NCBI GenBank assembly: GCA_009841075.1
Contig: VXMP01000075.1
Location: 5,907 to 69,906 of the forward strand
Source: Acidimicrobiia bacterium
GTDB lineage: Bacteria > Actinomycetota > Acidimicrobiia > Spongiisociales > Spongiisociaceae
Direction: 5' to 3'
Length of the DNA stretch: 64,000 nt
The notes beneath the pieces were generated by a model. The model worked only from the letters and a program-made list of their open reading frames with translations, was not told the origin of the DNA and searched no databases. Position numbers and translations under genes: made by a program. Below are positions 2,497-52,562 of this stretch, piece by piece; position 1 is the stretch's first letter; each line of letters begins with the position of its first letter.

Positions 2497-2537
2497 TATG
2501 TGCAAAAACGGGAACAGATTACGTGCAAAACCAGGAA
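2497..2537 (+). promoter_or_regulatory. Direct repeat TNNGTGCAAAAMC-GGAA x2 in the divergent intergenic region; candidate operator
   Basis: tatGTGCAAAAACGGGAAca and tacGTGCAAAACCAGGAAtg are spaced about 21 nt apart, immediately upstream of the ATPase start at 2566. Confidence 0.35.
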
Positions 2538-2565: not shown

Positions 2566-3795
2566 ATGGAAGGTTATGTCCCCCGCCTGGTAGACCGGCT
2601 TCTTGAGGAATACATCAAAGAAATCCCCGCCGTCATGGTGGTGGGTCCGCGCGCCTGTGGGAAAACCACCACCGCTCTCCGTCTTGTTCGTAGCGTGGTC
2701 CGGCTTGACTCGGATCAAGCCGCCTCGTTCCGGGCCGGGCCGGATGCGGCGCTACACGGGCGGGAAGAACCCGTACTGCTTGACGAGTGGCAGATGGTGC
2801 CGGAGGTGCTCGGTGCGGTCAAACGAGCCATAGACACCGACCGCCGACCCGGACGCTACCTTATCACCGGATCAGCCCGAACCGACCCGACCGACCGGCT
2901 CTGGCCACTAACCGGTCGGGCGGTAATGCTGCGTATGCACCCTCTGACGGTGGCCGAACAAGAGCATAGGCCCGTGCGCCCGCTGATCGACCGCATAGCG
3001 GAAGGCGAGGAGCCGGTAAAGGTCGAGGGGCCGCCAGTCGACCTGCGCGTCTATCTTCAGATCGCCTTAAAAGGTGGTTTCCCTGAGCCCGCCCTGAAGC
3101 TGAGCGAGTGGGCTGCCAGAGCTTGGCTCGAAAGCTACGCCGACCAGATCGCCCTAAGAGATTCCCGAACTCTCGGCAGCGAACCCGATGCCTACCGGCT
3201 GAAGCGCTACTTGGAGGCTTACGCCATCAACTCAGGACGGATAGTCCAACACAAGACGATCTACGACGCGGCCGGCATCAGCCGAAAGACCGCCTTGGCA
3301 TACGATGCCCTACTAAGCGACCTGATGGTCTTGAACGAGCTGCCGGCTTGGGCGACCAACCGACTCAAGCGGCTCAGCCGGGCTCCCAGGCGCTACCTGG
3401 TCGATTCTGGCCTGCTCGGGGGGATATTACGGGTCGGCATCGACGATGTAATGGCTAACGGCAACCTCCTCGGGACCATGATCGAGACGTTTGTGATAGC
3501 CCAGCTCCAGGCTCAAGCGGCTGTTTCGAGCACCCGCTATCGGCTTTCGCATCTACGGGAGCGCGACGGACGAAGGGAGGTGGACGTGATCGCAGAGTTG
3601 TCAGGAGGAAGGGTGATCGCCATAGAGATAAAGGCCGGGTCAAAGATCAGATCCTCCGATGCCCGACACCTATCGTGGTTGGGCGAGACCATGCAGGAAC
3701 GCTTCGTGGGCGGTGTAGTGCTGCATACCGGTCCCGACACCTACCGACTGGGTGATCGCATATTCGCCACTCCCATATCCACCCTGTGGGCTTAG
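2566..3795 (+). CDS. AAA+ ATPase, DUF4143 family (AAA_14 + DUF4143), paralog 1
   Basis: Walker A GPRACGKTT and Walker B LLDEWQ are present. The architecture is shared with the ORFs at 7238..8383 and 52788..54080. Confidence 0.85.
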   Translation: MEGYVPRLVDRLLEEYIKEIPAVMVVGPRACGKTTTALRLVRSVVRLDSDQAASFRAGPDAALHGREEPVLLDEWQMVPEVLGAVKRAIDTDRRPGRYLITGSARTDPTDRLWPLTGRAVMLRMHPLTVAEQEHRPVRPLIDRIAEGEEPVKVEGPPVDLRVYLQIALKGGFPEPALKLSEWAARAWLESYADQIALRDSRTLGSEPDAYRLKRYLEAYAINSGRIVQHKTIYDAAGISRKTALAYDALLSDLMVLNELPAWATNRLKRLSRAPRRYLVDSGLLGGILRVGIDDVMANGNLLGTMIETFVIAQLQAQAAVSSTRYRLSHLRERDGRREVDVIAELSGGRVIAIEIKAGSKIRSSDARHLSWLGETMQERFVGGVVLHTGPDTYRLGDRIFATPISTLWA

Positions 3796-10638: not shown

Positions 10639-12756
10639 TTAAGACGGGTTGGTCAGGCGGAAGATGTTGACTTCACTGAAGCTGACGTCATTGACCTCAA
10701 AGGTAAGATGGTCGTCCGCACCTCCCAAGGCCTCCTCAAACGTACCTATCGTCACCGACTCCCAGGATTCTTGGCTGGAGGTGCGCAGGAAGAAATGATC
10801 GTTCTGGTCGTAACCGAGGGCGATAACATCATCCCCCGAGGTAAGGGCGACTATCAACCGTGAACCTAGGTCGGTGGCGACCACCCTTCCCCCACCCATA
10901 TCGTCGTCCTCGGCTTTCCTCGCCCAATAGAAACGGGCGGTTGTGCTCCTAGGAGAACCGTCCTCGGCCTCGGCCCTAATCCGCTCCACACCCGTGTCTT
11001 CGGTGTCCCGCCGATAGGTTAAGGAGGCCTCGCCCTGACGGTTGGTAGCCCTCCTTAGTCCGTCCGACAGACCATCCGAATCATCAGAGTAGAAGGTGAT
11101 GGTTTCGTCTGCTACCGGATTGCCGTATTGGTCGGTCAAGGTGGCCGTCACCCGGTTCAAAACCCCCGAACCCTCATCCGAGGCGATCAGATAATTACCG
11201 GCCGGATAGGAAACGATCAGCTTGGAGGGCCGAGACGCTTCATCCGACCAGAAAAGGACCTGATCGGGCTGGCCACTGGGAGGGATGATCAATCGGCTGC
11301 TGCTCTCATCCTGGAAGGGATAATCGGCACTGGCGTCCAGGTCAAGGCGGTGGTTTCGGCCGGGCGATGTCGAAGTATCCGAAAACGCCTGATGGGACCA
11401 AACCGCCTCGCCCGATTGGTTGGTGGTGATCGTCTCACGGGTGGTTCGGGTTCGATTGTCGGTCCCCCTGATGCGAATGGTGAGGTTGATTTCGACTCCC
11501 TCGTGGGAGACCAGACCGCCTTCATCGTCAACCAGCTGGAAGGTGAAGTTCACCCGATTTCCGAACGGAACCAGCTCGGCATTGGCCTTGAGGTCGTCGG
11601 TCACCTTGATGGCCGAGATAAGTTTCACCTCATCTAAAGGAATAAAGTAGCGATCCAAGTTGTCAAGGTCGAAACTGCTACCTTCTGCGCCACTCCAAGC
11701 CCAGATAATCCCAGGTTCAGAACGGGGAGCCACGGTCAACCTGGTGTTTCCGCTTTCGCCGATGAAGTCCTCCGGGTCGATTTCGCAAGCGGTGCCAATC
11801 CCTAGGGCCATAACACTCGATGTGCATCTGCCGTCCTGGTCAAAGTCCTCCTCCGGATCATAAGTAACGAACACGTCTACCAGCTCGTCCTCGACCGGGG
11901 CGAACGAACCATCCCGAACCGACACCATCACCTCGATTTCGCCCCCTGGCTGCTGCACCTGGCTCAGATCGGCCTGAATGGATATACCGGCCGGCCGAAC
12001 GTTGGTGTGTGCCAGGGTTCGGGTAATAAAAGCGGCCATCTGGCCTCGGGTTACGGAAGCATCCGGTTCGAAAGTATTGGCGGTGGCCCCCTTGGTGATC
12101 CCCAGCTCGTAGATTCGGCGGGTGGCCTCATAGGCGAACGCCCCTACCTGGTCGAGGTCCCGAAACACATTGTCGTCAGGCTCTATACCGGCTATGTCGA
12201 AGTCGCCGGGAGCCGGAGGTGCGTATTGGAGGAAAGCGTCCAGGTAGGCGGCCATTTCCTGACGGGTAACCCATTGGTCGGGACGGAACTCTCTGATGGT
12301 TACCCCGTCCATGATGCCGAGCTCGACCAGCTGATTGATCGCGTTACCGGTGGTGGTAGACAGGACAGCGACATCGGCGAAGCCCTGGTCTTGCGGGACG
12401 GGCAAGTCGATACCGGCTACCACCGCCGCCCGTGACAGAAACAGCGCCATCTGCCGTCTCTTGATGGTGTCATTGGGAGAGAACGTGGTGACAGTAGTTC
12501 CCTTGGCGATCCCGTAATAGGCGAGGCAGTTCACCTCTTCCTCGAAAGTATGGTTGACCATGTCGCCGAATCCGGCCGAGCTGGTGGCCGGACCGACACA
12601 GGCGGAGTACCTGGCCGGATGGTCGGCCACCCCATCTACGGCAGCGACCGGCGAAAGGGCGGGAGGATATAGAGCCAACATGGAACCCACCAGAACCATA
12701 AGTATCAAGGCGGTCAGTCGGGCTCGGTGTCTGTTTGCCAGTGCCTTCAACCTCAT
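10639..12756 (-). CDS. Cell-surface protein with a signal peptide and three N-terminal S-layer homology (SLH) domains
   Basis: Three repeats carry SLH signatures (TRQEMAAYL, TRGQMAAFI, RRQMALFL). The C-terminal region is large and has no recognised motif. Confidence 0.8.
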   Translation of the reverse strand: MRLKALANRHRARLTALILMVLVGSMLALYPPALSPVAAVDGVADHPARYSACVGPATSSAGFGDMVNHTFEEEVNCLAYYGIAKGTTVTTFSPNDTIKRRQMALFLSRAAVVAGIDLPVPQDQGFADVAVLSTTTGNAINQLVELGIMDGVTIREFRPDQWVTRQEMAAYLDAFLQYAPPAPGDFDIAGIEPDDNVFRDLDQVGAFAYEATRRIYELGITKGATANTFEPDASVTRGQMAAFITRTLAHTNVRPAGISIQADLSQVQQPGGEIEVMVSVRDGSFAPVEDELVDVFVTYDPEEDFDQDGRCTSSVMALGIGTACEIDPEDFIGESGNTRLTVAPRSEPGIIWAWSGAEGSSFDLDNLDRYFIPLDEVKLISAIKVTDDLKANAELVPFGNRVNFTFQLVDDEGGLVSHEGVEINLTIRIRGTDNRTRTTRETITTNQSGEAVWSHQAFSDTSTSPGRNHRLDLDASADYPFQDESSSRLIIPPSGQPDQVLFWSDEASRPSKLIVSYPAGNYLIASDEGSGVLNRVTATLTDQYGNPVADETITFYSDDSDGLSDGLRRATNRQGEASLTYRRDTEDTGVERIRAEAEDGSPRSTTARFYWARKAEDDDMGGGRVVATDLGSRLIVALTSGDDVIALGYDQNDHFFLRTSSQESWESVTIGTFEEALGGADDHLTFEVNDVSFSEVNIFRLTNPS

Positions 12757-12953
12757 TCCCTCCCGTTTTCGTTTTACCTCTTAGGACGGCTTAAAGGAAT
12801 TGCCATTTTGCGTGTCTCCTGGGATGGTAGCCCGACCAGGTGGTTTTTTAACGTAACCACCGGTTGAGGGGTAATAAACGGGCGGACGAACCAATTGCCC
12901 GACCTCCCTTTACCCTCACTACAGAGACGAGATCCGATCGGAAACGCCGAAGC

Positions 12954-13397
12954 TCAACGGTGCTTGTCTAGTTGGGCGATTTTGTCCAGCCTGCGACGGT
13001 GGCGCTCCTCCCCCGAAAATCGGGCCGACAGGAAGGCTTGGGCCAGCTCCAGGGCGAAATCCGATTCGACCACACGACCCCCTAGACAAAGAACGTTGGC
13101 GTCATCGTGTTCGACCGACTGACGAGCCGAGTAAAGATCATGGGCCAGCGCCGCCCTCACCCCCCGCACCTTGTTGGCGGCGATGGCTGCCCCGATGCCG
13201 GACCCGCAGACCACTATCCCCCGATCGGTCTCGCCTTGTTGAACCGCTTCCGCCACGGCGATGGCCTGATCCGGATAATCGACCGGATCGGTGGAATGGG
13301 TGCCCAGATCGACCACCTCGTGATCGGCTCCGAGGATGGAAGCGAGGAAGGCTTTCAGCGGAAAACCCGCATGATCGGCACCTATAGCGATTTTCAA
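12954..13397 (-). CDS. rpiB: Ribose-5-phosphate isomerase B
   Basis: MKIAIGADHAGF...VVCGSGIGAAIAANK is the RpiB/LacAB signature. Confidence 0.9.
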   Translation of the reverse strand: MKIAIGADHAGFPLKAFLASILGADHEVVDLGTHSTDPVDYPDQAIAVAEAVQQGETDRGIVVCGSGIGAAIAANKVRGVRAALAHDLYSARQSVEHDDANVLCLGGRVVESDFALELAQAFLSARFSGEERHRRRLDKIAQLDKHR

Positions 13398-13474
13398 ATA
13401 CTTCTCCTTGGAGGGTCAACCCGAGAATACCTTCAATAACTTCTGGGGTGTGGGGCGGGGATAGAATCCGGCTC

Positions 13475-14263
13475 ATGGCAGGTCTATCGTTTGAGCCGCG
13501 CAGCTTCCCGAGGATATTGATAACCGCCCCGCTCATGTACCGGCATCGGCTGGGAGTCCTATTGCCGACCGCCGTGGTGCTGGACCTACCCTACGCGGTG
13601 CTCTACTTCGCCCTCGCCCCCGATCCTCCCGCCATTTCTCCCCTTCCTACCAATGCCGAAATCGGAGATTTTCTGCGGGTAATGGGTCCCTGGTTGGTTA
13701 TCCGCCTGCTGATAACCAGCATATTGTTCGCGGCGGTTATTCGGATGGTGGGGGAGGTCTTCCTGGGGGTCAAATCCTCCTGGAGCGAAAACACGGCGGC
13801 CTCTATCAGCCGGATGGCGTCTCTAACCGTTCTGACGGTGGTGTTCTGGGTGGGAGTAACTATGGGATCAGCCCTGTTTGTGCTGCCCGGATTGTTCCTG
13901 GTGGTGTCCTGGAGCGCCTCCTTGGGAGTGCTGATTATCGAAGGGGCGGGTCCGATGGCCGCCTTCAGACGTTCCTGGGAACTCACCTCCGGTCGCCGTC
14001 TGATCGTCTTTGTAACCCTGGTCCCGCTCACCTTCATGGTGGTGGTTACCAACATCCTGATTCTGTTGGTGCTGGGCCCCTTGGGTAACTACCTGGCCGG
14101 CGACCTCGGCGTTTTCCTGGCCTCGGAGCTGGCCTGGGTGGTGACCCAGCCTCTAATCGGCGTGCTGCTGGGGTTGCTTTATATTGATCTGCGGGTACGC
14201 CGGGATCAGCTGAACGCCAACATGCTGACCCGGGAGATGGTGGCCACCTCATTCGACCGCTAG
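13475..14263 (+). CDS. Hypothetical polytopic membrane protein
   Basis: About six hydrophobic segments. The ORF is 13448..14263 and the start is chosen at the MAG ATG. Confidence 0.5.
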   Translation: MAGLSFEPRSFPRILITAPLMYRHRLGVLLPTAVVLDLPYAVLYFALAPDPPAISPLPTNAEIGDFLRVMGPWLVIRLLITSILFAAVIRMVGEVFLGVKSSWSENTAASISRMASLTVLTVVFWVGVTMGSALFVLPGLFLVVSWSASLGVLIIEGAGPMAAFRRSWELTSGRRLIVFVTLVPLTFMVVVTNILILLVLGPLGNYLAGDLGVFLASELAWVVTQPLIGVLLGLLYIDLRVRRDQLNANMLTREMVATSFDR

Positions 14264-14351
14264 CCGGGTAACCTCTTTGTAGAGCTAACCGGTATCCTCT
14301 GGTAGCTCTGACTCCTGAGAAGAAACATCTTGCAGAACGGTTCCTTGTCTT

Positions 14352-14645
14352 ATGCGTATCAGCCCCACCGAGACAGCTGTAACAGTTAAATCCACCGCCC
14401 GTGATGGGGAGTCGGTCGAGATCGACCAGAGCCTGCTGGCCTCCACCCTGGAGTACATTCGTCCCGCCCTCCAATACGACGGAGGCGACCTGATCCTGGA
14501 GGGGGTGGATGAGGACGGAACCGTAAACCTGAACCTGGTGGGTGCCTGCAGCGGATGTCCGATGTCGATGATGACGTTGACGGCGGGGATCGAACGTATC
14601 CTGATCGACCGGGTGCCGGGGGTTACAGCCGTCAAAGCCCTTTGA
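14352..14645 (+). CDS. NifU-like (Nfu) Fe-S cluster scaffold domain protein
   Basis: CxxC motif GACSGCPMS in a NifU C-terminal-type fold sequence. Confidence 0.8.
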   Translation: MRISPTETAVTVKSTARDGESVEIDQSLLASTLEYIRPALQYDGGDLILEGVDEDGTVNLNLVGACSGCPMSMMTLTAGIERILIDRVPGVTAVKAL

Positions 14646-14689
14646 GCCGGTAGGTTTTCGGGGGTGGCGGCCGGTTCAAGAGGTTCAAT

Positions 14690-15478
14690 GTGGTCGAAAC
14701 AGTAGGCAATCGCGCCGAACCGACTGAAAAAGACGTGGAAGATTGGGTGAATCGGGTTCGCCTGGGTGACCGACGCGCCCTGGCCCGGGCCCTGACCCTG
14801 GTGGAAAACGGCCACCCCGACGGCGGTGGCCTGGTGAAGGCGTTCGGGCGGGGCGTCGAACCCGCTTATCGGGTGGGTTTTACCGGTGCACCCGGAGTGG
14901 GTAAGAGCACCCTCATCGCCGGTTTGGTCACCCTCTTGAGAACGGAGGATTTGACGGTGGGGGTATTGGCGGTCGACCCGTCCAGCCCGATCACCGCCGG
15001 GGCCTTGTTGGGCGACCGGATTCGTTTGCAAAACCACGTTGACGATTCCGGGGTGTATGTGCGATCGGCGGCCGGGCGAGGCCACCTGGGCGGGCTCTCT
15101 TCGGCGGCACCACAGATGGCGGAGGTTTTAGCCGGGGCCGGATTCGACCTTTTGCTGATCGAAACGGTGGGAGTAGGGCAATCCGAGGTGGAGATACGGG
15201 ATCAGGTGGATTCGACCGTGGTGATGCTCACGCCAGGTTGGGGAGACTCGATCCAGGTGGGCAAGGCCGGAATATTGGAAATCGGAGACATCTACGTGGT
15301 GAACAAGGCGGATCAGGCCGGCAGTGCCCAAACCCGTCTTGATCTGGAGAGGATGATCCACATGGGCCCGAATCGGTCTTGGCAACCTCCGGTTTTGGAA
15401 ACCATAGCCTTGGAAAAAGAGGGTATAGAAGAGCTGTGGCAGGCCATCGGGGCGCACAGAAGGTTCCTCAAAGGCTAG
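14690..15478 (+). CDS. meaB: Methylmalonyl-CoA mutase-associated GTPase MeaB/ArgK family
   Basis: GxPGVGKST P-loop, ETVGVGQSE and NKAD motifs. Confidence 0.88.
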   Translation: MVETVGNRAEPTEKDVEDWVNRVRLGDRRALARALTLVENGHPDGGGLVKAFGRGVEPAYRVGFTGAPGVGKSTLIAGLVTLLRTEDLTVGVLAVDPSSPITAGALLGDRIRLQNHVDDSGVYVRSAAGRGHLGGLSSAAPQMAEVLAGAGFDLLLIETVGVGQSEVEIRDQVDSTVVMLTPGWGDSIQVGKAGILEIGDIYVVNKADQAGSAQTRLDLERMIHMGPNRSWQPPVLETIALEKEGIEELWQAIGAHRRFLKG

Positions 15479-15593
15479 GCGGTAGCGAATGTCCCAGAGG
15501 ATGAAGGATATGCGCCTCTCGGCTTCAAGTCGGGAGTCGGATTGCCAGCAGGCCAAGGGTATTCTCTGGTAACCCGGATTTGAGGAGAAACCT

Positions 15594-16370
15594 TTGCAAT
15601 ACGTCTCTTACACCACCGAGGGGGCGGTGGGAATAATCGAATTGAATCGTCCCCCGGTAAACGCCCTCTCCGCCGAGGTAGCGGCCAACCTTTACGAAGC
15701 CCTGGAACAAGCCTCGGAGCCGGATATAAGGGCTGTGGTGATGACCGGACGCCCGCACTTCGCAGCCGGGGCCGACATTTCCGCCTTTCAAGCCGCCCAT
15801 CGCTCCGATGATGAAGGAGTTCGGTCGGAGGAAGCGAGCCGCCTGACCGCCGTCATCCGCCAAATGGAGTTGATGGCTCAGCCGATCATTGCGGCCGTGT
15901 TCGGATACGCATTGGGAGGAGGTTTGGAGTTGGCGATGGGTGCCGACTTTCGATACCTGGCCGAAGATGCCCGAGTGGGCCAACCCGAAAGCCGTCTGGG
16001 CATCATCCCTGGAGCAGGGGGAACCCAGCGCCTTACCCGATTGGTGGGGTTCAATCGGGGACGGGAGATCATCTACTCCGGACGTCATCTGGAGGCCCAG
16101 GAAGCCCTGGCGATCGGTCTGGCGGATAAGGTTTTTCCAGCCAAGGATCTGCTGGATGCCGCACTGGCCGATGCCGCCGCCTATGCAAAAGGGCCTTCGG
16201 TGGCGCTGGGAATGGCCAAGCGGGCCATCAACGAAGGCTGGGGTAGGCCGATAGAAGAGGGCATAGCAATCGAAGCGGACGCCTTTGACATCTCTTTCCG
16301 CAGCGACGACGCCAAAGAAGGGGTGGCCGCCTTCCTGGAGAAACGCAAACCGGATTTCAAGGGCAGCTAA
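15594..16370 (+). CDS. Enoyl-CoA hydratase/isomerase (crotonase) family
   Basis: TTG start. Contains GRPHFAAGADI, ALGGGLELAM and the crotonase oxyanion-hole motifs. Confidence 0.88.
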   Translation: MQYVSYTTEGAVGIIELNRPPVNALSAEVAANLYEALEQASEPDIRAVVMTGRPHFAAGADISAFQAAHRSDDEGVRSEEASRLTAVIRQMELMAQPIIAAVFGYALGGGLELAMGADFRYLAEDARVGQPESRLGIIPGAGGTQRLTRLVGFNRGREIIYSGRHLEAQEALAIGLADKVFPAKDLLDAALADAAAYAKGPSVALGMAKRAINEGWGRPIEEGIAIEADAFDISFRSDDAKEGVAAFLEKRKPDFKGS

Positions 16371-21498: not shown

Positions 21499-22650
21499 GT
21501 TGCGGCCGCCGCCGGTTGCGCCATACCAATCGATGATGCGTCCGATTCCGCCCTCAAGGTCGGATACGCTCGACACCAGGGAAATCCGCAGATAGCTGGA
21601 AGCTACTTGACCGTAGGCAGTTCCGAAGGTGGTCGAAACGTTCCAGTTGACCAGATCCAGCGACGCCTGCTTCGAGTCCACTCCCTCCGCCAAGGGAACC
21701 ATTAGGAAATAGCCGCCCCCGGGCACGTCCACCTCGATCCCTCCCTCCTTGAACAGCCTGACCGCCAGGTCGCGGCGGTGCTGGTAGCTACGCCTCATCT
21801 CGCCCACGATGTCCTGCGGTCCGGTGATGGCGGCTTCCGCGGCGGCCTGGGTCATGGTCGGCAGACAGGTGACCAGCGGCTCCTGGATTCGGCTCAAGGT
21901 GGGTGCCAGCCACTTGGGTGCCACCACGTAACCGATCCTCCAACCGGTCATGGAGTAGGTCTTCGAGAACGAATAGAGGCCGAGGACGTTTTCGGGGTCT
22001 TTGCCAAAGGCGTTGGCCGGCGATCGACCGTCGAAGATGATCTCGTCGTAGACCTCGTCGGAGAGTAAGGGGAGATCATGGCGGGCCGCCACTTCGACAA
22101 AGGCATCCACCAGCCCATCGCTGAAAACCGAGCCGCTGGGATTGGCCGGGGTGTTGATTATGAGGAGTCCGGTTCGGTCGGTGATCATCGATTCAACCTG
22201 GGCCGGGTCGGGCATAAACCCGTTCGCCGGGTCGAGGGGATAGGGCGTCGGGATCGCCCCGTGCAGACGGGTAAGCATCTCGAAGTGCGGCCAGGTGGGG
22301 TCGGGTAAAAGTATCTCATACCCTGGTTTAACCAGAGTGGACATAATGAGCGAGACGCCCTGGATTCCCCCCTGGGTGATAATGATTTGGTCAGGAGTGA
22401 CATCGAAGCCGTTCACCCGGCGAAGCTTGTCGGCAATCGCCGCCCGCAGGGTTCCAACGCCGCTCGTGTCCGTATAGCCGGAGCCGGCCCGGGCCGAAGC
22501 AACCGCCGCTTCCACCACATGCGCCGGGGTGGGGAAATCGGACTCGCCGATCTCCAGATGGAATATATCGTCTCGGCCCGCAATCAGGTCGAAGATCACA
22601 CGAATCCCCGACATAGGAACGGATTCGGCCCAGTCGGATACCTTTGGCAT
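21487..22650 (-). CDS. PLP-dependent class I/II aminotransferase (aspartate aminotransferase-like)
   Basis: SFSKTYSMTGWRIGY PLP-lysine region. Confidence 0.88.
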   Translation of the reverse strand: MPKVSDWAESVPMSGIRVIFDLIAGRDDIFHLEIGESDFPTPAHVVEAAVASARAGSGYTDTSGVGTLRAAIADKLRRVNGFDVTPDQIIITQGGIQGVSLIMSTLVKPGYEILLPDPTWPHFEMLTRLHGAIPTPYPLDPANGFMPDPAQVESMITDRTGLLIINTPANPSGSVFSDGLVDAFVEVAARHDLPLLSDEVYDEIIFDGRSPANAFGKDPENVLGLYSFSKTYSMTGWRIGYVVAPKWLAPTLSRIQEPLVTCLPTMTQAAAEAAITGPQDIVGEMRRSYQHRRDLAVRLFKEGGIEVDVPGGGYFLMVPLAEGVDSKQASLDLVNWNVSTTFGTAYGQVASSYLRISLVSSVSDLEGGIGRIIDWYGATGGGRNLPG

Positions 22651-22771
22651 TAGGTGCTACCTCTCTAGGGGGGTGTTTTCATGCTAGTTGCTCTGCGCCG
22701 GGGCAAAATGTCGGAAAGGGATTTATGCAGTCCACTGTTAATCCCCGTGATACCACTGAGAGAGGCTTCTG

Positions 22772-25266
22772 TTACCTACCTGAGGCCCGATAGAGAGCGA
22801 TCAGGCCTTCATTGTTGGCGAGGGTATTGATCTGGTCTCGGATGTTGTGGTCTTTCAGGTCTAGACGAAGCAGTCGTCCATCTATCCGGTCCAGAATCTC
22901 GATTCTCCCGAAGCGGTGTCCGTGTTCTTGGGCGTATAGGGCGAGCCCTTTGGCCTTTGCTACCGAGTCGGCTAGATGGGTTCCGTGGGGATCCAGGATG
23001 TCGACAACTATGCGGTCATCGTCTTGTCGGAAGAAAAGGAAATCGGGATAGACCGGCTGGTGTTCCCCATTTCTTCGTTGGTAGGGGAGGGTGAACGACC
23101 AGCTCTTGCGGGCGGGGTTGCGGAGCCAACCAAGACAGCCGGGGATTTCTGCTTTTAGTACAGCCTCTTCCAGGTTATTGAAGTGGTCGGAGAAGGTCCA
23201 GCCCTCGTCAACGTAAACGTGTCTTCCCCAGCCTGAGGCTTCGGCGGAACATTTCCACACCACCCGCTCCGGGTACCTGATTGTTATCAGAGCCGGCTGA
23301 TCGGACGAGCCGGTTATTTCGTGGTATACGGAGCGGCGACTCTCCGGCAGGCCGTCGATTTGTTCCCAATACTCGCTTAGCCATTGCCCAACCCGATCCC
23401 GAGCCAGGTTCTCTACTCCTTCTATGACCTCTGGGGCAAAGAGCAGCACGGCCACTTCAATCTTGGCGTGAGCGATCTGCTCCACATCGTCAATGCCCTC
23501 CACCGCACGTTGCCAGAATTCGTGATGGAGACCTTCTGCGATCTTGCGGCCCGCCTCGACGAATAGGTCGTTGATATTTTCGGACGAGGCCTCCACCTCC
23601 TGCACGGTGGTGTTGACAAACCTCTGTTCTATCAGGTCAAAGACAAGGGTGCCGAAGGTGACCAGTGACTTTTCGCGTACCTTATCCTGGAAGGTCTGAT
23701 CTTGGCGCTTTTCTTCCAGCTTCGACTGAAGGAATGCGCAGATCTCAGATTTGGCAGATGAGACGGCGTACTGATCAATACCGTCGACGCCCAGCGCTCG
23801 GGCCAGGCTCATCAGGCGGCGAACCTGTTTAGCCTTTCTGTGGGTAGGAACCGTGTAGGAGGGTAACTTGGAGAGCGCCTCGAAGATAGCCGCCTTATCG
23901 TCTGCACGATGTAACGTCACCGCCTCGCCGGATTGTTCGACCTCGACCGGAGGTACGTACTCGTGGTCGGAGTCGGTTAGGCGCTCAACCACCGATTGCA
24001 CACCTTGGGCGTCGTAATGGGGAAGGAACAGCGACACCCCGTTGAGGCTTTCGTCCTGGTTGATCCGCCTGGCGAGCGGGGTTCGAACCATCCTGCCGAT
24101 CAGCTGGGCTATGTAGGTGGCGTCCTTGGCCCGGCGGTAGGACATCATCGTCTCGGCCCGGGGGCAGTCCCAGCCGGTGGATAGGGCCGTCTTGAAGAAC
24201 ACCACCCTGACCTCGCGGTCGGCGGCGATCCGGGAGGGGGCGAGGTATTGGATCACGCGGCCATCCAAATCAAGGTGGCTGGCCTCGTCGAAGGAATGGC
24301 GGAACGCCTGGTTCGGCAAGGCGGCGGAAAGTTCCTCGTTGATCGCCTGGATCGCCTGGTTCAGGTCGGTGCGCGTTCCAGGCTTACCCTTCGGCGCGTT
24401 TTCCACTTGGACAATGAAGAGAGGCACCACCGGTCGCTCGCCCTGCTCGGCGCAGTATGTCGCCCAGCGCTCGGTGTAGTCCTTCCAGTGGCGGGTCGCC
24501 GCCCGCAACAGCGTGATGTCGATCTGCTGGTCGTCGGCGCTGTGGTGGAGCACGATCCGCTCCTTCAGCAGGCCGGACTCACGAACCTCGGCCGGCTCGA
24601 CGTGTACCGGATGAACGGTGCGGGATCCGGCTACCAGATCGTTGAACCGTTTAGGGGTGGCCGAAATGCCCAGCACCAGCGGCGAGGCTCGCATCTCGTC
24701 GGTGCCCTTAAGGAACCTTTGGATAATCGTTTCCGCGTTTTTCTCGTCACCTTTGGTTCGCATACCGCGATGGGCCTCGTCGATGATCACCACAAAGCGA
24801 GCACCCATCCGTTCGATGGTGTTGTCTAACGTCTGCCAGATCGTCCACCATTTTTTGTCCCCCAATGTGGTGAGCAGCTTGTCCCGGCCCAGCTTCTGCG
24901 TGTTCAGAAAGTAGAGTCGGCCCGGGCTCAGCACCTCTTGATTGAAGGACGACTCTATGACCTCCATATCCATCGGGGTCAGAACATCGGAGGTGTTGAG
25001 CATCTTGTTGTAGGTCTGGAGGTTCAGTTCGGGCAGGTCGGTGATCCAAAGAAATATGGCTTGGTCATCCGGGCCTTGCTGATGGTCGCCCTGGAGAATC
25101 CGCTCTAGGAGACGGGTGGCGATGACCGTCTTGCCTGCGCCGGTCGGTGCCGAAAGAACCACCGCCTGGGGAGAGTTTGGGCCTGCGATCGAGGCGGCTT
25201 GACGGACCCTGGTGGTCAGGTCTTCCACCGCCGCCTGCTGGAAATCCTTGAGGACCAGCCGCATCA
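22772..25266 (-). CDS. res: Type III restriction enzyme Res subunit (SF2 helicase + C-terminal nuclease-like region)
   Basis: The start is taken at MRLVLKDFQQ (about 25266), not at the far-upstream ATG of the ORF. Motif I is APTGAGKT and motif II (DEAH) is VVIIDEAHRG. Confidence 0.8.
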
Positions 25267-27425
25267 GCCCAGCACCCCCGACCGTTGACGGTGAAGTTGC
25301 GCGAGTAATCCCAGTAGAGCCTCCGGACCTGCAAGTGCTCGGGTAGGGCCTGGCACATCTCAATGAAACCGGCCTCCGAGTTGGTGACCAGCCACACATG
25401 GGTAACAGACGGGCGTGACTCAAGTTCCTTGGTGAACTGGGCCAGATGCTGCTCGTCAAACAGAACTCCGTAGGTGGAGCCATCCGGCAGGGACCAGGGT
25501 GCGTCACCGTCCCACTCCTCGAACTCTCCAACCGATCCGGACGCCATCCACAGAATCGGGACCACCGCGTTGAAATGTCGGCCCAGCTCCACCAGGTCAG
25601 GATCCAGATAGTCGAGACGGAGGAACTCGACATTCTCTTCGAATCCGTCTTCGTAGTTGTGGTCGGAGAGGTATCGGTCGGGGTACTTACCGGAGGGACT
25701 TGTGCCATCCGACCGAATTCCCTTTATCGCGGTCTCGCACCTCGGCTTGGTAACGGCCTCAAAGATGCCCTTCGCCTCGAACTCGGCATCTCCCTTGAAC
25801 ACCCCCCTTTGAGTCCCGGCCAGCGATTTAGCATCCCTGTCGTTTACCTCGTTGTTAGTGACCAAAACACATTGACGCCGACCGCCGTCCTGGGCGTTCA
25901 GTAGTGCGGTAGCGTGGAGGGTGGTGCCGGAACCCGCGAAGAAGTCAAGAATTACCGCGTCGGGTTTGGAGACCACCAGTGCATCCAGCGTATCGCGTAC
26001 CGCGTAAAGGGATTTCGGAAAATCGAATTGACGTCCCCCCAAAAGTTCTCCTAAGAGTTTGGTACCGCCTGTACCGGCGTCATGGCGGGATCGATGCCAC
26101 ATGGTCTTTATACGACGGTCCCGAGCACCCACATATCTAACAGAGAGCACACCCGTGTCTTCATTTCGACTCACCACTTCCAGCAAACCGGCTTCGAGCT
26201 GGTCCTGTAATTTGGCAGAGAGATAAGAAATCGCCCAGGTGCGCCGTTCGGGGTCGAACTTCCCTAACCGGGCCAGGCCACGGTGGGCAAGATCAAGTAA
26301 CTTCTCGCGCCCTAGGCCCCAATTACCCAAGGATTTATCCTTACGGATAGGCCAAGCCACCGGAAATCCTCCAATGGTTAGGTCAACCTCTGGAGTGAGG
26401 AAGTTGTACTCCGAAGGGTCAAGTAGTCCTTGTTCACCCCTTTCCTTGAGGCTCTCCCCCACATCTACGATTCGGCCCTTCTTCGGGTCGATGGCAATCG
26501 GATACACCATATTCGGACGGTCGGAAGGAAGAGCATTAGTTCCACCTCGAAGTAAGGACTTCCATCCAGGTGCTTGCTTTTCGCCTGCAGTATCACCGCC
26601 GAACGTAAACAAATCATCTGGCCTTGACTCAACCCCTGCCTCGCCGAAAAAGACAAAGTGGGCATATTCCTCAACACGCGAAAAGCGCGGCTGGGTCACG
26701 CCTTTCGGGTTGTTCATAATCGTCACCATCTGGTGGTAGGCATCCGGGAACATCTCATCAAGCAGAACGCCCAAATGGTGCACTTCATGCTCGTCGATCG
26801 TTACCACCAGCACCCCGTCCGGCTTCAATAGGTGCCTGGCTAAGCGGAGGCGTTTTTCCATAAACGACAGCCACTTGGAATGGCGGTAGCGATCATTTTC
26901 GTCTACGAAGCGGTTGTTGTACTTCCACGACTTGTCGCCGGTGTTGTACGGAGGGTCGATATAGATGCAATCCACCTTCCCGGCATAGGCGTATGTCAGC
27001 ACCTGCAGGGCATGAAAGTTCTCGCCGTTGATGACCACATGGGCGGGCTTTTCCGGACCTCCCCTCCTCACGTTCCCCACCGGGGTCAGGCCGCAGAAGA
27101 CCTGTTCGTGGAACTGCTTCACCACCAAAAGGTCCTTGACGGGAATCTTGGCTTCCGGCCCGTCGGTTCCCCTCGGGATGACCGTGGCCACACCGTCCTC
27201 GACCTTCAAGACCCGAAATTGGGACAGGTCATCGGGAGTAGTGCGGTTCTGGACGATTTGCCCCGACCGAACCGGATAACCGAACACCGAAACCGTCTCC
27301 GGAATGTGCTCCTCGAAGACCAACCCGAACTGCTTGGTCTTCTTCAGTTCCTTAACCTCTGAGGCGACCTGCTCCCGTAGCGACGGGTCTTCAATCTGGT
27401 CAATCAGGTCTTCTATCTTCGCCAT
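25065..27425 (-). CDS. mod: Type III R-M Mod subunit, N6-adenine DNA methyltransferase
   Basis: DPPY motif IYIDPPYNTG, SAM-binding motif FFAGSGTTLHA, and an NPPY-class layout. The C-terminal ~66 codons look like GC-rich read-through overlapping the res start. Confidence 0.85.
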   Translation of the reverse strand: MAKIEDLIDQIEDPSLREQVASEVKELKKTKQFGLVFEEHIPETVSVFGYPVRSGQIVQNRTTPDDLSQFRVLKVEDGVATVIPRGTDGPEAKIPVKDLLVVKQFHEQVFCGLTPVGNVRRGGPEKPAHVVINGENFHALQVLTYAYAGKVDCIYIDPPYNTGDKSWKYNNRFVDENDRYRHSKWLSFMEKRLRLARHLLKPDGVLVVTIDEHEVHHLGVLLDEMFPDAYHQMVTIMNNPKGVTQPRFSRVEEYAHFVFFGEAGVESRPDDLFTFGGDTAGEKQAPGWKSLLRGGTNALPSDRPNMVYPIAIDPKKGRIVDVGESLKERGEQGLLDPSEYNFLTPEVDLTIGGFPVAWPIRKDKSLGNWGLGREKLLDLAHRGLARLGKFDPERRTWAISYLSAKLQDQLEAGLLEVVSRNEDTGVLSVRYVGARDRRIKTMWHRSRHDAGTGGTKLLGELLGGRQFDFPKSLYAVRDTLDALVVSKPDAVILDFFAGSGTTLHATALLNAQDGGRRQCVLVTNNEVNDRDAKSLAGTQRGVFKGDAEFEAKGIFEAVTKPRCETAIKGIRSDGTSPSGKYPDRYLSDHNYEDGFEENVEFLRLDYLDPDLVELGRHFNAVVPILWMASGSVGEFEEWDGDAPWSLPDGSTYGVLFDEQHLAQFTKELESRPSVTHVWLVTNSEAGFIEMCQALPEHLQVRRLYWDYSRNFTVNGRGCWADAAGPQGFPAGGGGRPDHQGPSSRLDRRPKLSPGGGSFGTDRRRQDGHRHPSPRADSPGRPSARPG

Positions 27426-27438
27426 CTAATTCCGCTGT

Positions 27439-28050
27439 TCAGTAATCTTCGTCCGACTCATCCTCGGCCAGGCCGCAGGGTTGGTCTAGGGGGTGATCCC
27501 ATATTTCGGGGGAGGACACTGCCGTAATCCCTACGTAGTAGGTCCATAACAGGCCGCCCACTCCGCCAAGGGGGCCGTCTACGTAGAGCTCGTAACTGCA
27601 ACGCATGCCTTTATCGGGTCGATCGGGGTCGTATCTGCGATAGTCTATGCACCGGTTGAGGTCGTCCCAATCCGGCCCCTCCTCCCAGCCTTTGAGGCGC
27701 ATCTTATGGCGGCTATCGGGAGGGTTCTTGTGATCCACGGCTTGCACGGCGTAGTCCAGAATCAGCCGACGGGCCTCGTCGACCGTCTCGACTATCACCG
27801 GGACGGCGGCCTCGATCAAACATCCGGTCTGGCTTTCTATCTCCACCGTATAGGCCAAACCGGCGCGGTGTTTAACCCACCGGATTGCTTCCGCCCAGGC
27901 TTCTTTCCTGGTATTAAACACAGGGCTATAGGTTGAGAGAGGCTGTCCGTCAAGGGTAGGTCGATAGCCCTCTTCGGTCCGCTCGGCACCGGGAGTCGGT
28001 AGGTTTTCAAGAGTTATTTCCCTGGATTCGTTATCCCACTTTGTAACCAT
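27439..28050 (-). CDS. Hypothetical 203-aa protein with an acidic C-terminal tail, first gene of the mod-res operon
   Basis: Co-oriented, 13 nt upstream of mod, lower GC like the rest of the island. No recognisable motifs; ends ...AEDESDEDY. Confidence 0.6.
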   Translation of the reverse strand: MVTKWDNESREITLENLPTPGAERTEEGYRPTLDGQPLSTYSPVFNTRKEAWAEAIRWVKHRAGLAYTVEIESQTGCLIEAAVPVIVETVDEARRLILDYAVQAVDHKNPPDSRHKMRLKGWEEGPDWDDLNRCIDYRRYDPDRPDKGMRCSYELYVDGPLGGVGGLLWTYYVGITAVSSPEIWDHPLDQPCGLAEDESDEDY

Positions 28051-28291
28051 GCCGGAACCCTAACGGGAGTATGGGACAGAAACCTTTGGGATCTTCCGGC
28101 GGGGACGACATTTCTCGGGAAGGCTCGGCCCAACGTTGAGCGTACAAGCTCTGTGGAAGGTGGTTACTATTCCAGGCTATGTCGGGGAGGGCTAACTGCG
28201 GGTCCGATGATTCGCCCAACGGTCTGCACCCTCCCTAGACCTGGGCTAGGGTTAAATGACCGGCCGATACCTGGAAGGAGGTAGGTCTGAC

Positions 28292-30031
28292 ATGAAATAC
28301 GTTCAGAATCCCAGCAGGAGGCTTCGGAGCGTGATCGCTCTGGTAGCGGTTTTGGCGCTGGTGGCGGCGGCATGCGGCGAGGACGACCCGGCACCGACCC
28401 CCACAACCGAAGCCATGATGGAAGAGGCAACCACCACCACTACCGAAGCCATGATGGAAGAAACCACTACCACTACCGAAGCCATGATGGAAGAGGATGA
28501 GCATGAGCATGAGGATGAAGACGAACATGCTCATGAAGACGAGGATGAACATGCCCATGAGGATGAGCATGAGGACGAGCACGAGGATGTGGAGCTGGTG
28601 GTGGCCATCGGACAAGACATCACCGTTCGCGACCAGCGCCTTCCTGGAAACTCTGCGGCGGCCTTTTCTGCTAACCGTCACATCACCGAGAGCCTGACCT
28701 TCTTCAACGCCAACGGTTCCGAGCTGATGCCGGTATTGGCTACGAGTTGGGAACAGGTCGAACCCACCCGGTGGCGTTTCCACCTGCGCGAAGGTGTCCA
28801 TTTCCACAACGGAAACGACTTCAACGCCGACACCGCCGTTTATAGCTTCGAGAAGTCTCTCGATCCCGACTTCTCTACCTGGTACGGCTTCGTGATCAAC
28901 CCGGTCATAGCCGGCGTGGAGAAGGTGGACGACTACACGATCGACGTAATAACCAACGCAGCGACGCCGCTACTCCCCAATATGCTGGCCGTGGTCGACA
29001 TGGTCGATCCCGCCTACGATGTCGGAGAGCAGCAAAACATTGCTCCGGTCGGCACCGGGCCTTACATGTTCAACGAGTTCGTACCTCTGTCGCAATATGT
29101 GATGGACCGCAACGAAGACTACTGGGGTGGACATGAGGCATACAGCCGGATCACCTGGCGGATCATTCCGGAGCAGGCGACCCGCGTTCAAGCTCTGCTC
29201 AGCGGCGAGGTTTCGGCGATCAACGCCATCTCAACCGAGAACATCGCCCAGATCGAAGGGGCCGGAGGCTTCACCATCGCCGGTTCGCCGACGACTCGGC
29301 TGATTATGATCGCCCTGCGTAATGATCGGGCACCTCTCGACAACCCACTGGTTCGCCAGGCCATGAATTACGCGGTCGACAAGGCAACCATCGTCGAGGC
29401 GCTACTACCCGGTATCGCGGTACCTGCCAACGGGATTCTCACTTCCAATATCCCGGGTGCAAATGCCGCGTCAGATCCCTTGGGTCCCTGGCCCTACGAT
29501 CCGGACCAGGCCCGGGCACTGCTGGCCGAAGCGGGATACAACGGCGAGCCGATCACCATCGCCATCGGTGCCGGGCGTTACCCGAGCGACGATTTGGTCG
29601 GGCAGGCCGTGGTGGCCCAGCTTGTAGAGGCCGGGCTTAACATCCAGCTCGAGGCGATCGACTACTCGACCATGCAGGCCGAGCTCTCCAACCGGGAGAC
29701 AGCCGCCTATGACGGCTGGCTCCAGGGATGGGGATCGTTCTACCTGTCGCCGACCTACGAGCTCGAAGCCTTTTTCGGAGGTCCGGACGGGGCACTGCCT
29801 TTGTTCTATGACAACCCCGACTACCAGACGGCGATCGAGGCCGCCATCAACGCCGAGAGCCTTGACCAGATGGTCGATCCGGCCAGGACCGCAGAGCGGA
29901 TTGCCTGGGAGGATGCGGGCGGTATCTTCTTGTATTTCCCGGTGGAGAACCTGGCGACCGTAGATTCGATGGAGGGCTTCTCAGCCCGATTTGACGAGTT
30001 CTTCTACTTCTCCGGAACTCATCTGCACTAA
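28292..30031 (+). CDS. ABC transporter substrate-binding lipoprotein (family 5, peptide/nickel type) with an N-terminal TEAMMEE x3 repeat and a His/Asp/Glu-rich tract
   Basis: GGAGG lies 10 nt upstream of the ATG at 28292. Signal peptide plus lipobox AAACG. Three 39-bp tandem repeats and HEDEDEHAHEDE low complexity. The SBP_bac_5 fold sequence follows. Confidence 0.88.
   Translation: MKYVQNPSRRLRSVIALVAVLALVAAACGEDDPAPTPTTEAMMEEATTTTTEAMMEETTTTTEAMMEEDEHEHEDEDEHAHEDEDEHAHEDEHEDEHEDVELVVAIGQDITVRDQRLPGNSAAAFSANRHITESLTFFNANGSELMPVLATSWEQVEPTRWRFHLREGVHFHNGNDFNADTAVYSFEKSLDPDFSTWYGFVINPVIAGVEKVDDYTIDVITNAATPLLPNMLAVVDMVDPAYDVGEQQNIAPVGTGPYMFNEFVPLSQYVMDRNEDYWGGHEAYSRITWRIIPEQATRVQALLSGEVSAINAISTENIAQIEGAGGFTIAGSPTTRLIMIALRNDRAPLDNPLVRQAMNYAVDKATIVEALLPGIAVPANGILTSNIPGANAASDPLGPWPYDPDQARALLAEAGYNGEPITIAIGAGRYPSDDLVGQAVVAQLVEAGLNIQLEAIDYSTMQAELSNRETAAYDGWLQGWGSFYLSPTYELEAFFGGPDGALPLFYDNPDYQTAIEAAINAESLDQMVDPARTAERIAWEDAGGIFLYFPVENLATVDSMEGFSARFDEFFYFSGTHLH
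28405..28600 (+). repeat. Coding tandem repeats (3 x 39 bp TEAMMEE(A/T)TTTT) followed by a GAnGAnCAT (His-Glu-Asp) microrepeat
   Basis: Direct reading: accgaagccatgatggaagag... occurs three times, followed by gatgagcatgag/gaggatgaacatgc periodicity. Confidence 0.8.
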
Positions 30032-50825: not shown

Positions 50826-52562
50826 CTAAGCCACCTGGTATTCGAGCAGGGACGACTTACCTAGCATTTCGATAAAACGTACCCTCAGGCTGACGCCGTT
50901 TACATCGGTCAGCATCAGGACTTGGCCCAGCTTGAAATTAACCGGCTGAGACTTGCCTTCGTCAACGGCAACGTTGGCTGTGTATAGGTAGGTTCTTTCC
51001 AGGGTGTCGAGAATCGGGTTTAGCCTCCCGGCCAGGCCGGGAAGGTGGCCAGTTCCTTCCGTGAATATCGCAGACCCGCCGCCCGGCAGCTCGGTTAGCT
51101 CTATAGCCAGTTCCTGGGGTGGCTGCCAAGCCTTCTCTACATACCCGACCAAACCAGGGGCACCGCATAACACTGTTATGGGAAGTTCGGAGTGAAAACG
51201 AAAGTGGGCACGTCCGAAAGTGTCGGTTTCTTCTGCCATCCAGGTTCCGTTCGGATAATGAGCCACCACCTTTACGCCGCTTTTTGGCCGGCCCTGGACG
51301 CTTACTGTTACAACCCCCTTCAAGTCTTCGGTCGGTGGAGGAGCAGAGGGGATGGTCAGGCGGAGCTCAACACCATCTAATAGCTCGTAACGTGGTTCTT
51401 GTCCGGTGAGGGAAAGCGTGTCGCGGTAGATAATCCTGACCCCTTCGCCACGCTCCTGCAGGAAATAGCGGCGATTGCCCGAACCAGGAACCTCCCCGAT
51501 TTCCAGTAGGCGGAGTATGGAGGCCAGGGTTTCGTTACGAGTGGCCTGACGGTCGCGCATCGCGTCAATAGATAGCGTGTTGGGGAGGGTGCCGGGAGAA
51601 TATAACTCCAGCCGATCATCGAATATAAACATCCTCGTCTTGGCGTTCTCTATGGAATAGTCCCGATGCACCACCGCATTTACCACCGCCTCGAACAACG
51701 ACCGTTCACTGAACTGTGGTACCTCGACAAATCCCGGCGTTCTCCGCGCCGACACCCGTGTATTGAAACGGGCGAACTTCACAGCTTGCCGAATCTGTCG
51801 ATCCAGAGGCCCGGTGATGGTGGAGGCGTCGTGTTGTTCCGCGCTGTCGAGAGCCGTTCCCCTATAGCGAACCGCTTCGATTAATGCACCTCTCAGGTAA
51901 AGGTGCGGCTTTTCGGTGCAAAGCAGTACACCTGCCACCGTGGCCCGCGACACACCCTCGTCATCGATATCCAACAGACCTAGCTTCAAGAGTTGGTTCT
52001 GCACCGACTCCTCGGAACGGGAGCTAAGGAAACGGTCGATTAGTTCTGTATCCAAGGTGCGAAAGCCAGTCCGGTCTACCATTGTTTCATCAGGGCCTTT
52101 AAGTCCGGCTCGACCGCGGTGCTGGAACAGCCGGTACAGAGCGGAGGGCGATAGCTGCCTCTTGGAACTGCCTTGTCTTTGAAGGTATCCGCCCGGACTG
52201 CGGTGAACCAAATCGCTTCTAGGGATATCCACTACCAGCACCATTCCCTGCTCCAGGGCGAACTTATGGGTAAAAAAGTGAAGGGGTGGATCTATGCTAT
52301 CGGCGCAAACCTCACTTATGAAGGCCTCTGCCTTCCCTAGACCTTCCCGATCCAGTGAACCAACCTCCCCCTGGTCTGTCACACCGAGAAACAGAGTGCC
52401 TCCCATAGTGTTGCCTAAAGCGGCCAACTCGTCGGCCATAGTCTCTCTTCTGGGTGACACCAAGCGCCCGTCTTGAATCTTGACGTCCTTGAACTCGATC
52501 CGAGTGTCCTCGCCGAGCAACAAACGCTCTCGCACCAACTCCTTGGTCCAAATTACGGCCAT
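50826..52562 (-). CDS. AlbA_2 (Schlafen-like DNA-binding) + HATPase_c_4 (RecG-C-terminal-like) protein with an extra ~170-aa C-terminal domain of unknown function
   Basis: The N-terminus has EDTRIEFK. The mid region has AVVNAVVHRDYS. The C-terminal region has no recognisable motifs. Confidence 0.7.
   Translation of the reverse strand: MAVIWTKELVRERLLLGEDTRIEFKDVKIQDGRLVSPRRETMADELAALGNTMGGTLFLGVTDQGEVGSLDREGLGKAEAFISEVCADSIDPPLHFFTHKFALEQGMVLVVDIPRSDLVHRSPGGYLQRQGSSKRQLSPSALYRLFQHRGRAGLKGPDETMVDRTGFRTLDTELIDRFLSSRSEESVQNQLLKLGLLDIDDEGVSRATVAGVLLCTEKPHLYLRGALIEAVRYRGTALDSAEQHDASTITGPLDRQIRQAVKFARFNTRVSARRTPGFVEVPQFSERSLFEAVVNAVVHRDYSIENAKTRMFIFDDRLELYSPGTLPNTLSIDAMRDRQATRNETLASILRLLEIGEVPGSGNRRYFLQERGEGVRIIYRDTLSLTGQEPRYELLDGVELRLTIPSAPPPTEDLKGVVTVSVQGRPKSGVKVVAHYPNGTWMAEETDTFGRAHFRFHSELPITVLCGAPGLVGYVEKAWQPPQELAIELTELPGGGSAIFTEGTGHLPGLAGRLNPILDTLERTYLYTANVAVDEGKSQPVNFKLGQVLMLTDVNGVSLRVRFIEMLGKSSLLEYQVA

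Follow-up and report, generated by a model that had tools for sequence, protein, structure and literature searches.

What does an uncharacterised gene that stands first in a restriction-modification (R-M) operon do there, and does its position make it a part of that system? We address this question for ORF203, which encodes an acidic protein of 203 residues in a 64,000-nucleotide stretch of an Acidimicrobiia bacterium genome (assembly GCA_009841075.1, contig VXMP01000075.1, positions 5,907 to 69,906 of the forward strand; hereafter the window). An open reading frame (ORF) check of the window reproduced both termini of the gene exactly, and placed it 13 nt before a Type III mod gene on the same strand, as had been proposed. 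The original prediction had further seen in it a possible specificity, regulatory or anti-self factor, perhaps a new accessory component of a Type III-like defence system. That interpretation is partly supported: the operon linkage and an association with defence hold, but a component specific to Type III systems does not. At about an even chance of being right, our best explanation is that ORF203 would be an autonomous, damage-inducible leader gene with a leaderless mRNA, behind which nuclease cassettes have been recruited, and the product of which modulates these nucleases.

Gene contexts and promoter of the ORF203 family

When 5.8 billion proteins were searched by a word index, homologues of ORF203 were found in 59 clusters at 37-74% identity. 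Nearly all are 195-250 aa long, none has a Pfam domain, and they carry no other name than 'hypothetical protein' from Acidimicrobiia metagenome-assembled genomes. An exhaustive hidden Markov model (HMM) search of 1.84 billion cluster representatives returned only 29 proteins, all of which are family members or fragments. All members come from sponge-associated Acidimicrobiia; in a species-representative genome set, 19 genomes carry the family at a single locus each (Ca. Aldehydirespirator, Ca. Spongiisociaceae and bins of the SB06xx, APA and RHO series), and no relatives were found in IMG/VR viral contigs. These 59 clusters, a dN/dS of ~0.3 between alleles, and a confident AlphaFold2 model (pLDDT 83.9, pTM 0.77) establish ORF203 as a genuine gene rather than a chance ORF, and one that is conserved under purifying selection.

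We gathered 44 loci (given below as L numbers), of which 29 are non-redundant, and classed the neighbours of the family gene by tblastn probes, Pfam and PADLOC. McrB-McrC followed by a DUF222-HNH gene lies downstream in 12 of the 29, a degraded McrBC in one, a DUF222-HNH gene alone in five and mod-res in three; in the other eight the family gene stands alone. In most of the McrBC loci of clade A (see below), the McrB frame begins 2-50 nt past the family stop, and the McrB partners, 531-943 aa long, carry N-terminal DUF8426 domains. In the HNH-only loci L009 and L013, the HNH gene lies within 6-75 nt of the family gene. The three mod-res loci turn out to be three strain alleles of a single chromosomal locus (the window, identical to L027-L030; L037-L039; L042-L044), and neither the Mod nor the Res of the window was found at the 26 family loci outside this chromosomal locus. 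As such, the proposed role as an accessory of a Type III-like system loses its footing, the linkage to mod-res being confined to one locus and the usual partner being McrBC-HNH.

The stand-alone copies are intact and have kept their promoter in all eight loci, which include L034, the nearest outgroup to the window protein (74% identity). No common downstream partner was found in these loci; the downstream genes (5'-nucleotidase-like, amidase, Pro/Thr-rich protein, FAD oxidoreductase, Fic) are mutually unrelated and without PADLOC matches. Homologues outside any R-M context, which the original prediction had itself named as speaking against it, thus exist. In L005, one of the stand-alone loci, a Fic/DOC protein (10953-12140) is accompanied by a convergent Eco57I-like type IIG R-M enzyme (12858-16025). 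In the family tree, context tracks clades, clade C being the window group, B the stand-alone group and A the McrBC-HNH group, and both flanks of the family gene vary among genomes. Among the clade-A loci, three of the six in which McrBC was lost have a damaged family gene, against none of the 12 in which McrBC is retained (a stop at W169 in L016, a frameshift in L025, a deleted tail in L009; one-sided Fisher p ~0.025, for loci that are not phylogenetically independent). This decay after loss of McrBC suggests a functional coupling, although the lesion in L009 may have arisen as a by-product of the deletion.

Seen reciprocally, Mod homologues are spread over many phyla and number at least 8000 at E ≤ 1e-30, against 59 ORF203 clusters in one lineage, and the expected co-occurrence of the gene with this Mod/Res clade was not borne out. 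Mods of 97% and 70% identity lie at the same chromosomal locus as that of the window, each with the 203-aa family gene 13 nt upstream, whereas a 75%-identical Mod (L040/L041) lies together with its Res in an unrelated context without the family gene. It follows that mod-res can do without ORF203, and ORF203 without mod-res.

Within the window locus itself, ORF203 is almost certainly co-transcribed with mod-res, judging from the 13-nt gap and from the fact that neither a promoter nor a terminator was found between ORF203 and mod. The same junction is present in L027-L030, L038, L039, L042 and L044. A scan for sigma-70 promoters over positions 22400-28500 gave zero matches, an Rfam scan of 22000-29000 gave no match, and no convincing direct or inverted repeats flank the island. 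The identity of the two downstream genes as mod and res held, the product of the latter being a ResIII/DEAD helicase with a nuclease-like C-terminus. The lower GC content that ORF203 was said to share with its operon applies to mod (third-position GC, GC3, of 0.652 for both) and is modest against the flanking ABC-transporter and aminotransferase genes (0.71-0.78), but it does not extend to res, which at 0.727 is higher. Co-function, which had been deduced from position, stands insofar as the genes are linked in an operon and the family repeatedly heads restriction-nuclease operons, but it is not tied to Type III systems.

The first clue to a shared promoter was that, for many family genes, the upstream extension of the ORF 'translated' to one and the same peptide, whereas the window has an in-frame stop at this place; this pointed to a conservation of the DNA itself, and not of a coding sequence. 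Wherever an intergenic region lies upstream of a family gene, it carries TGTC-N12-TAnnnT, followed after 6-8 nt by ATG or GTG; the sole exception is the full-length copy of L015. In the non-redundant loci (530 kb, both strands), there are 25 instances of TGTCAC-N10-TAnnnT, each of them 7±1 nt ahead of a family start codon; the variant TGTC boxes of the window, L034, L035 and L022 are likewise found at family starts. The distance from the -10 to the ATG in 30 distinct family promoters is 7 nt in 24, 6 nt in three and 8 nt in three, and 30 out of 30 fit the 22-nt motif tGTC..(N10)tA(N3)T. It should be noted that this set was collected with a pattern demanding TGTC; the positions that were not forced by it, ACACCC, are 87-100% conserved. 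The 25 nt upstream of TGTC hold about 0.0-0.6 bits per position, showing neither conservation nor a -35. In the window the promoter sequence is TGTCCCATACTCCCGTTAGGGT (28078-28057), and since its -10 ends 6 nt ahead of the ATG, the ORF203 mRNA would be leaderless.

Furthermore, all 12 of the DUF222-HNH (13E12-type) genes of the clade-A loci are preceded by TGTCACACCC-CTATGG-GATACT-6nt-ATG (at L002:14806, L008:16966, L009:10636, L031:14629, L032:16259 and seven more), and thus share both the box and the leaderless geometry with the family genes. In a scan of the loci, none of McrB, McrC, mod and res had a box of its own. Matches elsewhere in the window, at 51005, 48651 and 52377, were dismissed as being at chance level, wrongly spaced or inside an ORF. 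That at 51005 (plus strand), the sole other TGTCR-N11-TAnnnT match in the window and a count at chance level, falls within a gene for a 578-aa Schlafen AlbA_2 + HATPase_c_4 protein (50826-52562, minus strand).

The architecture described here appears to be that of the actinobacterial PafBC/RecA-NDp DNA-damage promoter. The in-vivo motif of PafBC is tGTCgg(N10)tA(N3)T, in which the GTC is strictly conserved, a '-26 element' replaces the -35 and the -10 is that of SigA (PMC8635444), and an earlier RecA-NDp consensus reads tTGTCRgtg-8nt-TAnnnT (PMC5656591). PafBC works via RecA-NDp (PMC6789036) and is present in almost every actinobacterial species (PMC8635444), and the 13E12 genes of M. tuberculosis, which contain RecA-NDp, are induced by damage (PMC3381160). 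The assignment is made because of the motif match, the invariance of GTC, the lack of a -35 and the occurrence of the same box on 13E12-type HNH genes. The family promoters share with this regulon the TGTC box at ~-26, the N10-12 spacer and the TAnnnT -10 without a -35 (PMC8635444, PMC5656591), and, in their 13E12-type DUF222-HNH neighbours, a gene type that is damage-induced in M. tuberculosis (PMC3381160). They differ from it in the longer box (TGTCACACCC; in the window, TGTCCC), and in that the HMM search found no homologue of ORF203 in mycobacteria or elsewhere outside the sponge Acidimicrobiia; the regulation, too, is in the present case a predicted one.

The protein and its alleles

An alignment of 45 family sequences has 24 invariant columns, C77, W128, W169 and W184 among them, and in the acidic tail the composition is conserved, so that the acidic tail noticed earlier in the window protein is a feature of the whole family. 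The 45 members are acidic without exception (median pI 4.8, net charge -15), and the window protein slightly more so (pI 4.57, net charge -17). The AlphaFold2 model shows a hairpin and a helix at the N-terminus, then a core of the order beta-beta-beta-alpha ... beta-beta-beta, and finally a disordered tail. The core is also predicted with confidence by itself (residues 60-197, pLDDT 87.3), and in relatives it is encoded separately, as a paralogue of 140-155 aa. Such short paralogues, which lack the N-terminal ~60 residues, are monophyletic in the family tree and were found in L012-L015, L017, L018, L020-L022 and L032 (e.g. L032:9527-9970), either in tandem upstream of the full-length copy or in its stead, most of them with a TGTC-N12-TAnnnT promoter of their own. 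In L014, L015, L017 and L021, a conserved inverted repeat, ATGACAAT(C/G)AATGTCAT, lies ~50-90 nt upstream of the short-paralogue promoter, within a divergent intergenic region shared with a gene for a 175-aa coiled-coil protein; it is a possible operator.

The profile and structure searches that had been suggested for ORF203 gave no match in profile libraries, the PDB or a library of viral structures, and its description as a protein without recognisable motif is upheld. Pfam, NCBIfam and PADLOC returned zero matches and PHROGs only noise; neither Pfam nor NCBIfam contained a helix-turn-helix (HTH) or other DNA-binding domain matching it. Foldseek found no match in the PDB or BFVD (best E 0.16 and 0.009, respectively; TM ≤ 0.3). 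When all 45 members were scanned against Pfam at E ≤ 5, sub-threshold matches to MoaE (seven members, best E = 0.008, in one stretch) and DUF6894 (two members) appeared, both of which were rejected as noise, as were chance matches of the family profile to GLP-1 receptor among PDB sequences (E ≥ 0.7). A suspected likeness of residues ~64-106 to the HicB-like/TTHA1013-like antitoxin fold was dropped as well, since this 45-member scan gave no Pfam match to it, and no such structures were among the Foldseek matches of the full protein or the core. The family is therefore an orphan, its model being confident and its fold without a matched relative.

Over 11 kb the window shares 98.96% identity with L038, and the differences between the two cluster in two places. 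One is a tract of ORF203 and its promoter (Table 1) that is much more diverged from L038 and L042 than the rest of the locus. ORF203 codons 1-110 have a dS of 0.25-0.33, against 0.002-0.012 in the flanking genes, at a dN/dS of ~0.3; for the comparison with L038, the tract has a dS of 0.25 on a background of 0.002-0.005, with a dN/dS of 0.36, and the two ORF203 proteins differ at 20 of 203 aa. Inside the tract, the TGTC box and TAGGGT are unchanged, and five of the ten spacer bases are altered. The other cluster lies in mod codons 201-400 (dS 0.22). The central block of mod is allelic at 26800-26220 against L038 and at 26644-25650 against L042, in strains that are otherwise 97-99% identical, and in the latter comparison an internal block of ~1 kb has been replaced outright, to the extent that blastn cannot align it. 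This looks like the swapping of a target-recognition domain (TRD), which would change specificity.

Positive selection in ORF203 was considered and rejected, as the diverged patch combines a high dS with a dN/dS of ~0.3; judged by these rates, the diverged tracts are imported alleles under purifying selection. While the allele replacement in ORF203 resembles that of the Mod TRD, a single event does not suffice for a claim of diversifying selection. L038 and L042 have the same ORF203 allele, which differs from that of the window, and different Mod central blocks. The alleles of ORF203 and the blocks of Mod thus assort independently, which argues against a partnership in specificity.

Weighing the possible roles

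How, then, could an acidic orphan come to head such different operons? In the explanation that we favour, DNA damage or single-stranded DNA (ssDNA) would activate a WYL-type activator, which in turn would switch on leaderless transcription of the family gene. Nuclease cassettes would have been placed directly behind this leader gene at least twice, thereby capturing the family promoter: McrB-McrC, then a 13E12-type DUF222-HNH gene with its own box, fills the cassette position in most genomes, and a Type III mod-res fills it in the genome of the window, where mod-res is most likely co-transcribed with ORF203 and hence presumably damage-inducible. The ORF203 product would bind protein, not DNA, and either restrain or direct the co-induced nucleases during the damage response. 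This modulation of nucleases by protein binding, suggested by the charge, the acidic tail and the decay after McrBC loss, is the least supported step.

Several points weigh against this explanation. Since context tracks the clades, there seem to be only about two independent associations with nucleases, and the clade B gene being intact without an adjacent nuclease weakens a role that depends on one. The box TGTCACACCC is longer than the mycobacterial consensus, which makes a private regulator possible, and the window's own box is TGTCCC, not TGTCR. Furthermore, transcription start and inducibility are read from sequence alone, and neither Foldseek against PDB and BFVD nor the profile against PDB sequences lent structural or homology support to the proposed role.

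Some of these same points favour the view that ORF203 is simply an unrelated neighbour, a lineage-specific gene at the edge of a variable island with an ordinary or family-private promoter or operator, without a link to damage, and the adjacency of which is meaningless. Both flanks of the gene vary among genomes, context follows phylogeny, the conserved box exceeds the PafBC consensus, and the PafBC link is a predicted one. Still, we consider this rather improbable, given the exact match to the PafBC architecture with its invariant GTC, N10 spacing and lack of a -35 (PMC8635444), the presence of the same box on HNH genes of the 13E12 type, known targets of RecA-NDp (PMC3381160), and two different nuclease cassettes within 2-50 nt of the family stop.

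Slightly better placed, though still unlikely, is the opposite view, in which the protein is an obligate accessory that binds McrBC or the Type III Res/Mod, for instance by its acidic, DNA-mimicking tail, and that is needed for safe operation of the nuclease, be it as a dedicated guard, as an antitoxin-like inhibitor or as a restriction-alleviation factor. A first cistron tight against McrB or mod, an acidic protein with an acidic tail, a gene that decayed in 3/6 loci without McrBC, and an allele-replacement hotspot like that of the neighbouring Mod TRD, as is expected of defence genes, would all fit. Yet eight loci hold an intact copy and promoter with no recognisable nuclease nearby, the Mod clade and McrBC are far more widespread than the ORF203 family, and L040 has a similar mod-res cassette (75%-identical Mod) without the family gene; nor did Pfam, NCBIfam, PADLOC or PHROGs reveal homology to ArdA, Ocr, ArdB or antitoxins. 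ArdA, Ocr, Ral and Lar are small and strongly acidic proteins, and restriction alleviation has a link to DNA damage. The ORF203 family resembles DNA mimics such as ArdA, Ocr and ArdB in its strongly acidic composition, but it has no sequence or fold similarity to ArdA, Ocr, Ral or Lar (Pfam, PHROGs, PADLOC, Foldseek), and unlike these it is chromosomal, present at a single locus per genome, absent from viral contigs and encoded in cis with the nuclease, not on an invading element. A broader version of the modulator idea, to which we would give no better prospects than to the obligate accessory, is that the family forms a new class of proteins that DNA damage induces and that modulate NTP-dependent restriction nucleases by protein binding, in the manner of DNA mimics. 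In that case a cis-encoded guard would restrain or license McrBC and Type III systems during repair of the chromosome, or the family would couple the sensing of ssDNA to restriction.

Far less probable than any of these are two roles in which ORF203 would act on DNA. Its position directly upstream of McrB in 12 loci recalls the R1-R2-R3 organisation of LlaI and BsuMI, in which R1 is a separate DNA-recognition module that gives the motor-nuclease its target (bioRxiv 10.64898/2026.08.31.748284). LlaI.R1/BsuMI.R1, with 331 aa and two domains, are ERCC4-like; they have extended basic surfaces for DNA binding and go with short McrB motors (bioRxiv 10.64898/2026.08.31.748284). The likeness is confined to a separate, co-oriented gene directly upstream of an McrB-like motor: with ~205 aa, a charge of -15, another predicted topology and long McrBs, the ORF203 family is set apart by its description; the McrB partners already have an N-terminal DUF8426, and the family also precedes mod-res or HNH, or stands alone.

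A controller-like transcription factor or a specificity factor of the Type III system, the other role, is about as remote. C proteins have an HTH, are small (~80 aa) and recognise palindromic C-boxes, and the first place in an R-M operon, which ORF203 occupies, is typical of C genes. At 203 aa, strongly acidic and without an HTH or other DNA-binding domain, ORF203 does not resemble them; the element upstream is promoter-like and non-palindromic, with no C-box, and McrBC systems have no methylase that needs timed expression. As such, the regulatory factor of the original prediction is unlikely insofar as it would bind DNA, and the specificity factor fails on the alleles, as those of ORF203 do not co-vary with the Mod TRD alleles (L038/L042).

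Restriction under the control of a damage- or ssDNA-responsive regulator, as our favoured explanation would have it, is not without precedent. DdaA, a WYL activator of Moraxellaceae, induces R-M and CRISPR systems upon DNA damage; its motif is found in 27% of R-M promoters in Acinetobacter, where both the transcription of R-M genes and the protection against phages increase under mitomycin C (PMC12392091). WYL regulators are also reported to co-localise with defence islands (PMC9122601). In this respect, the predicted arrangement resembles WYL-controlled defence of the DdaA and BrxR/CapW types, but here the regulator gene is not adjacent and the promoter is carried by a leader gene, and in comparison with DdaA, the lineage (Actinomycetota) and the systems involved (McrBC, Type III) are different ones. 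A damage-regulated defence locus is thus known; an orphan leader protein without a known relative is new. If the promoter prediction is true, the McrBC, Type III R-M and 13E12-type HNH nucleases of uncultured Actinomycetota living in sponges would be wired into a PafBC-type, ssDNA-triggered damage response. The link between damage response and phage defence, experimentally shown so far in Moraxellaceae, would then extend to the Actinomycetota, and the damage-induced 13E12 genes of mycobacteria might gain a defence-related context. For annotation, the locus serves as a warning that adjacency alone is insufficient to call ORF203 a Type III component.

Feature coordinates and further observations in the window

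Table 1. Location of the features discussed, as window positions or, for the protein regions, ORF203 residues.
Feature	Position	Strand	Description
ORF203	27439..28050	minus	CDS, ATG to TGA, 203 aa, acidic protein
ORF203-mod junction	27426..27438	minus	13 nt, acagcggaattag; too short to contain a promoter or terminator
Type III mod (downstream cargo gene 1)	25065..27425	minus	ATG at 27425; PADLOC MTase_III 5e-146; Pfam N6_N4_Mtase
Type III-like res (cargo gene 2)	22772..25264	minus	830 aa from MRLVLKDFQ; ResIII/DEAD and YagJ-type C-terminus
Predicted PafBC/RecA-NDp-type promoter	28057..28078	minus	TGTCCC-ATACTCCCGT-TAGGGT
TGTC box ('-26 element')	28078-28075	minus	part of the predicted promoter
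-10	28062-28057	minus	TAGGGT, part of the predicted promoter
Spacer and start codon	28048..28056	minus	TCCGGC (6 nt) + ATG; -10 ends 6 nt before the start codon
Allelic replacement tract	27640..28095	minus	~450 nt; promoter spacer and ORF203 codons ~1-135
ORF203 N-terminal extension	residues ~1-60		beta-hairpin + helix
ORF203 core	residues ~60-195		autonomous alpha/beta
ORF203 tail	residues ~195-203		disordered, acidic, EDESDEDY

The mod gene of the window has a 1-nt deletion near 25281 (GGTCCGGGGG -> GGT-CGGGGG) in comparison with L038 and L042, which sits 16 nt ahead of the normal stop. The deletion lengthens the ORF to 786 aa, against 711-722 aa, and makes it overlap res by 200 nt, and the TGATG coupling of mod stop and res start is lost in the window. 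The 786-aa form is also present in L027 and L028, contigs that were assembled independently.

Upstream of ORF203, an SBP_bac_5 gene (28256-30031, plus strand) contains at 28390-28597 three tandem copies of TTEAMMEE, followed by a His/Glu/Asp-rich HEDEDEH repeat; these N-terminal repeats may be a metal-binding, low-complexity linker. Near the start of the window, the GC content falls to 0.449 at 1001-2000, within a 481-aa ORF without a Pfam match (1060-2505, minus strand). Next to this ORF lies an AAA_14/DUF4143 ATPase gene (2566-3795), and the same ATPase family is found near L033, L035 and L036. Finally, the window carries two tRNA-Ser genes ~0.9 kb apart, at 55019-55107 (minus strand) and 56002-56092 (plus strand), with the anticodons CGA and GGA.

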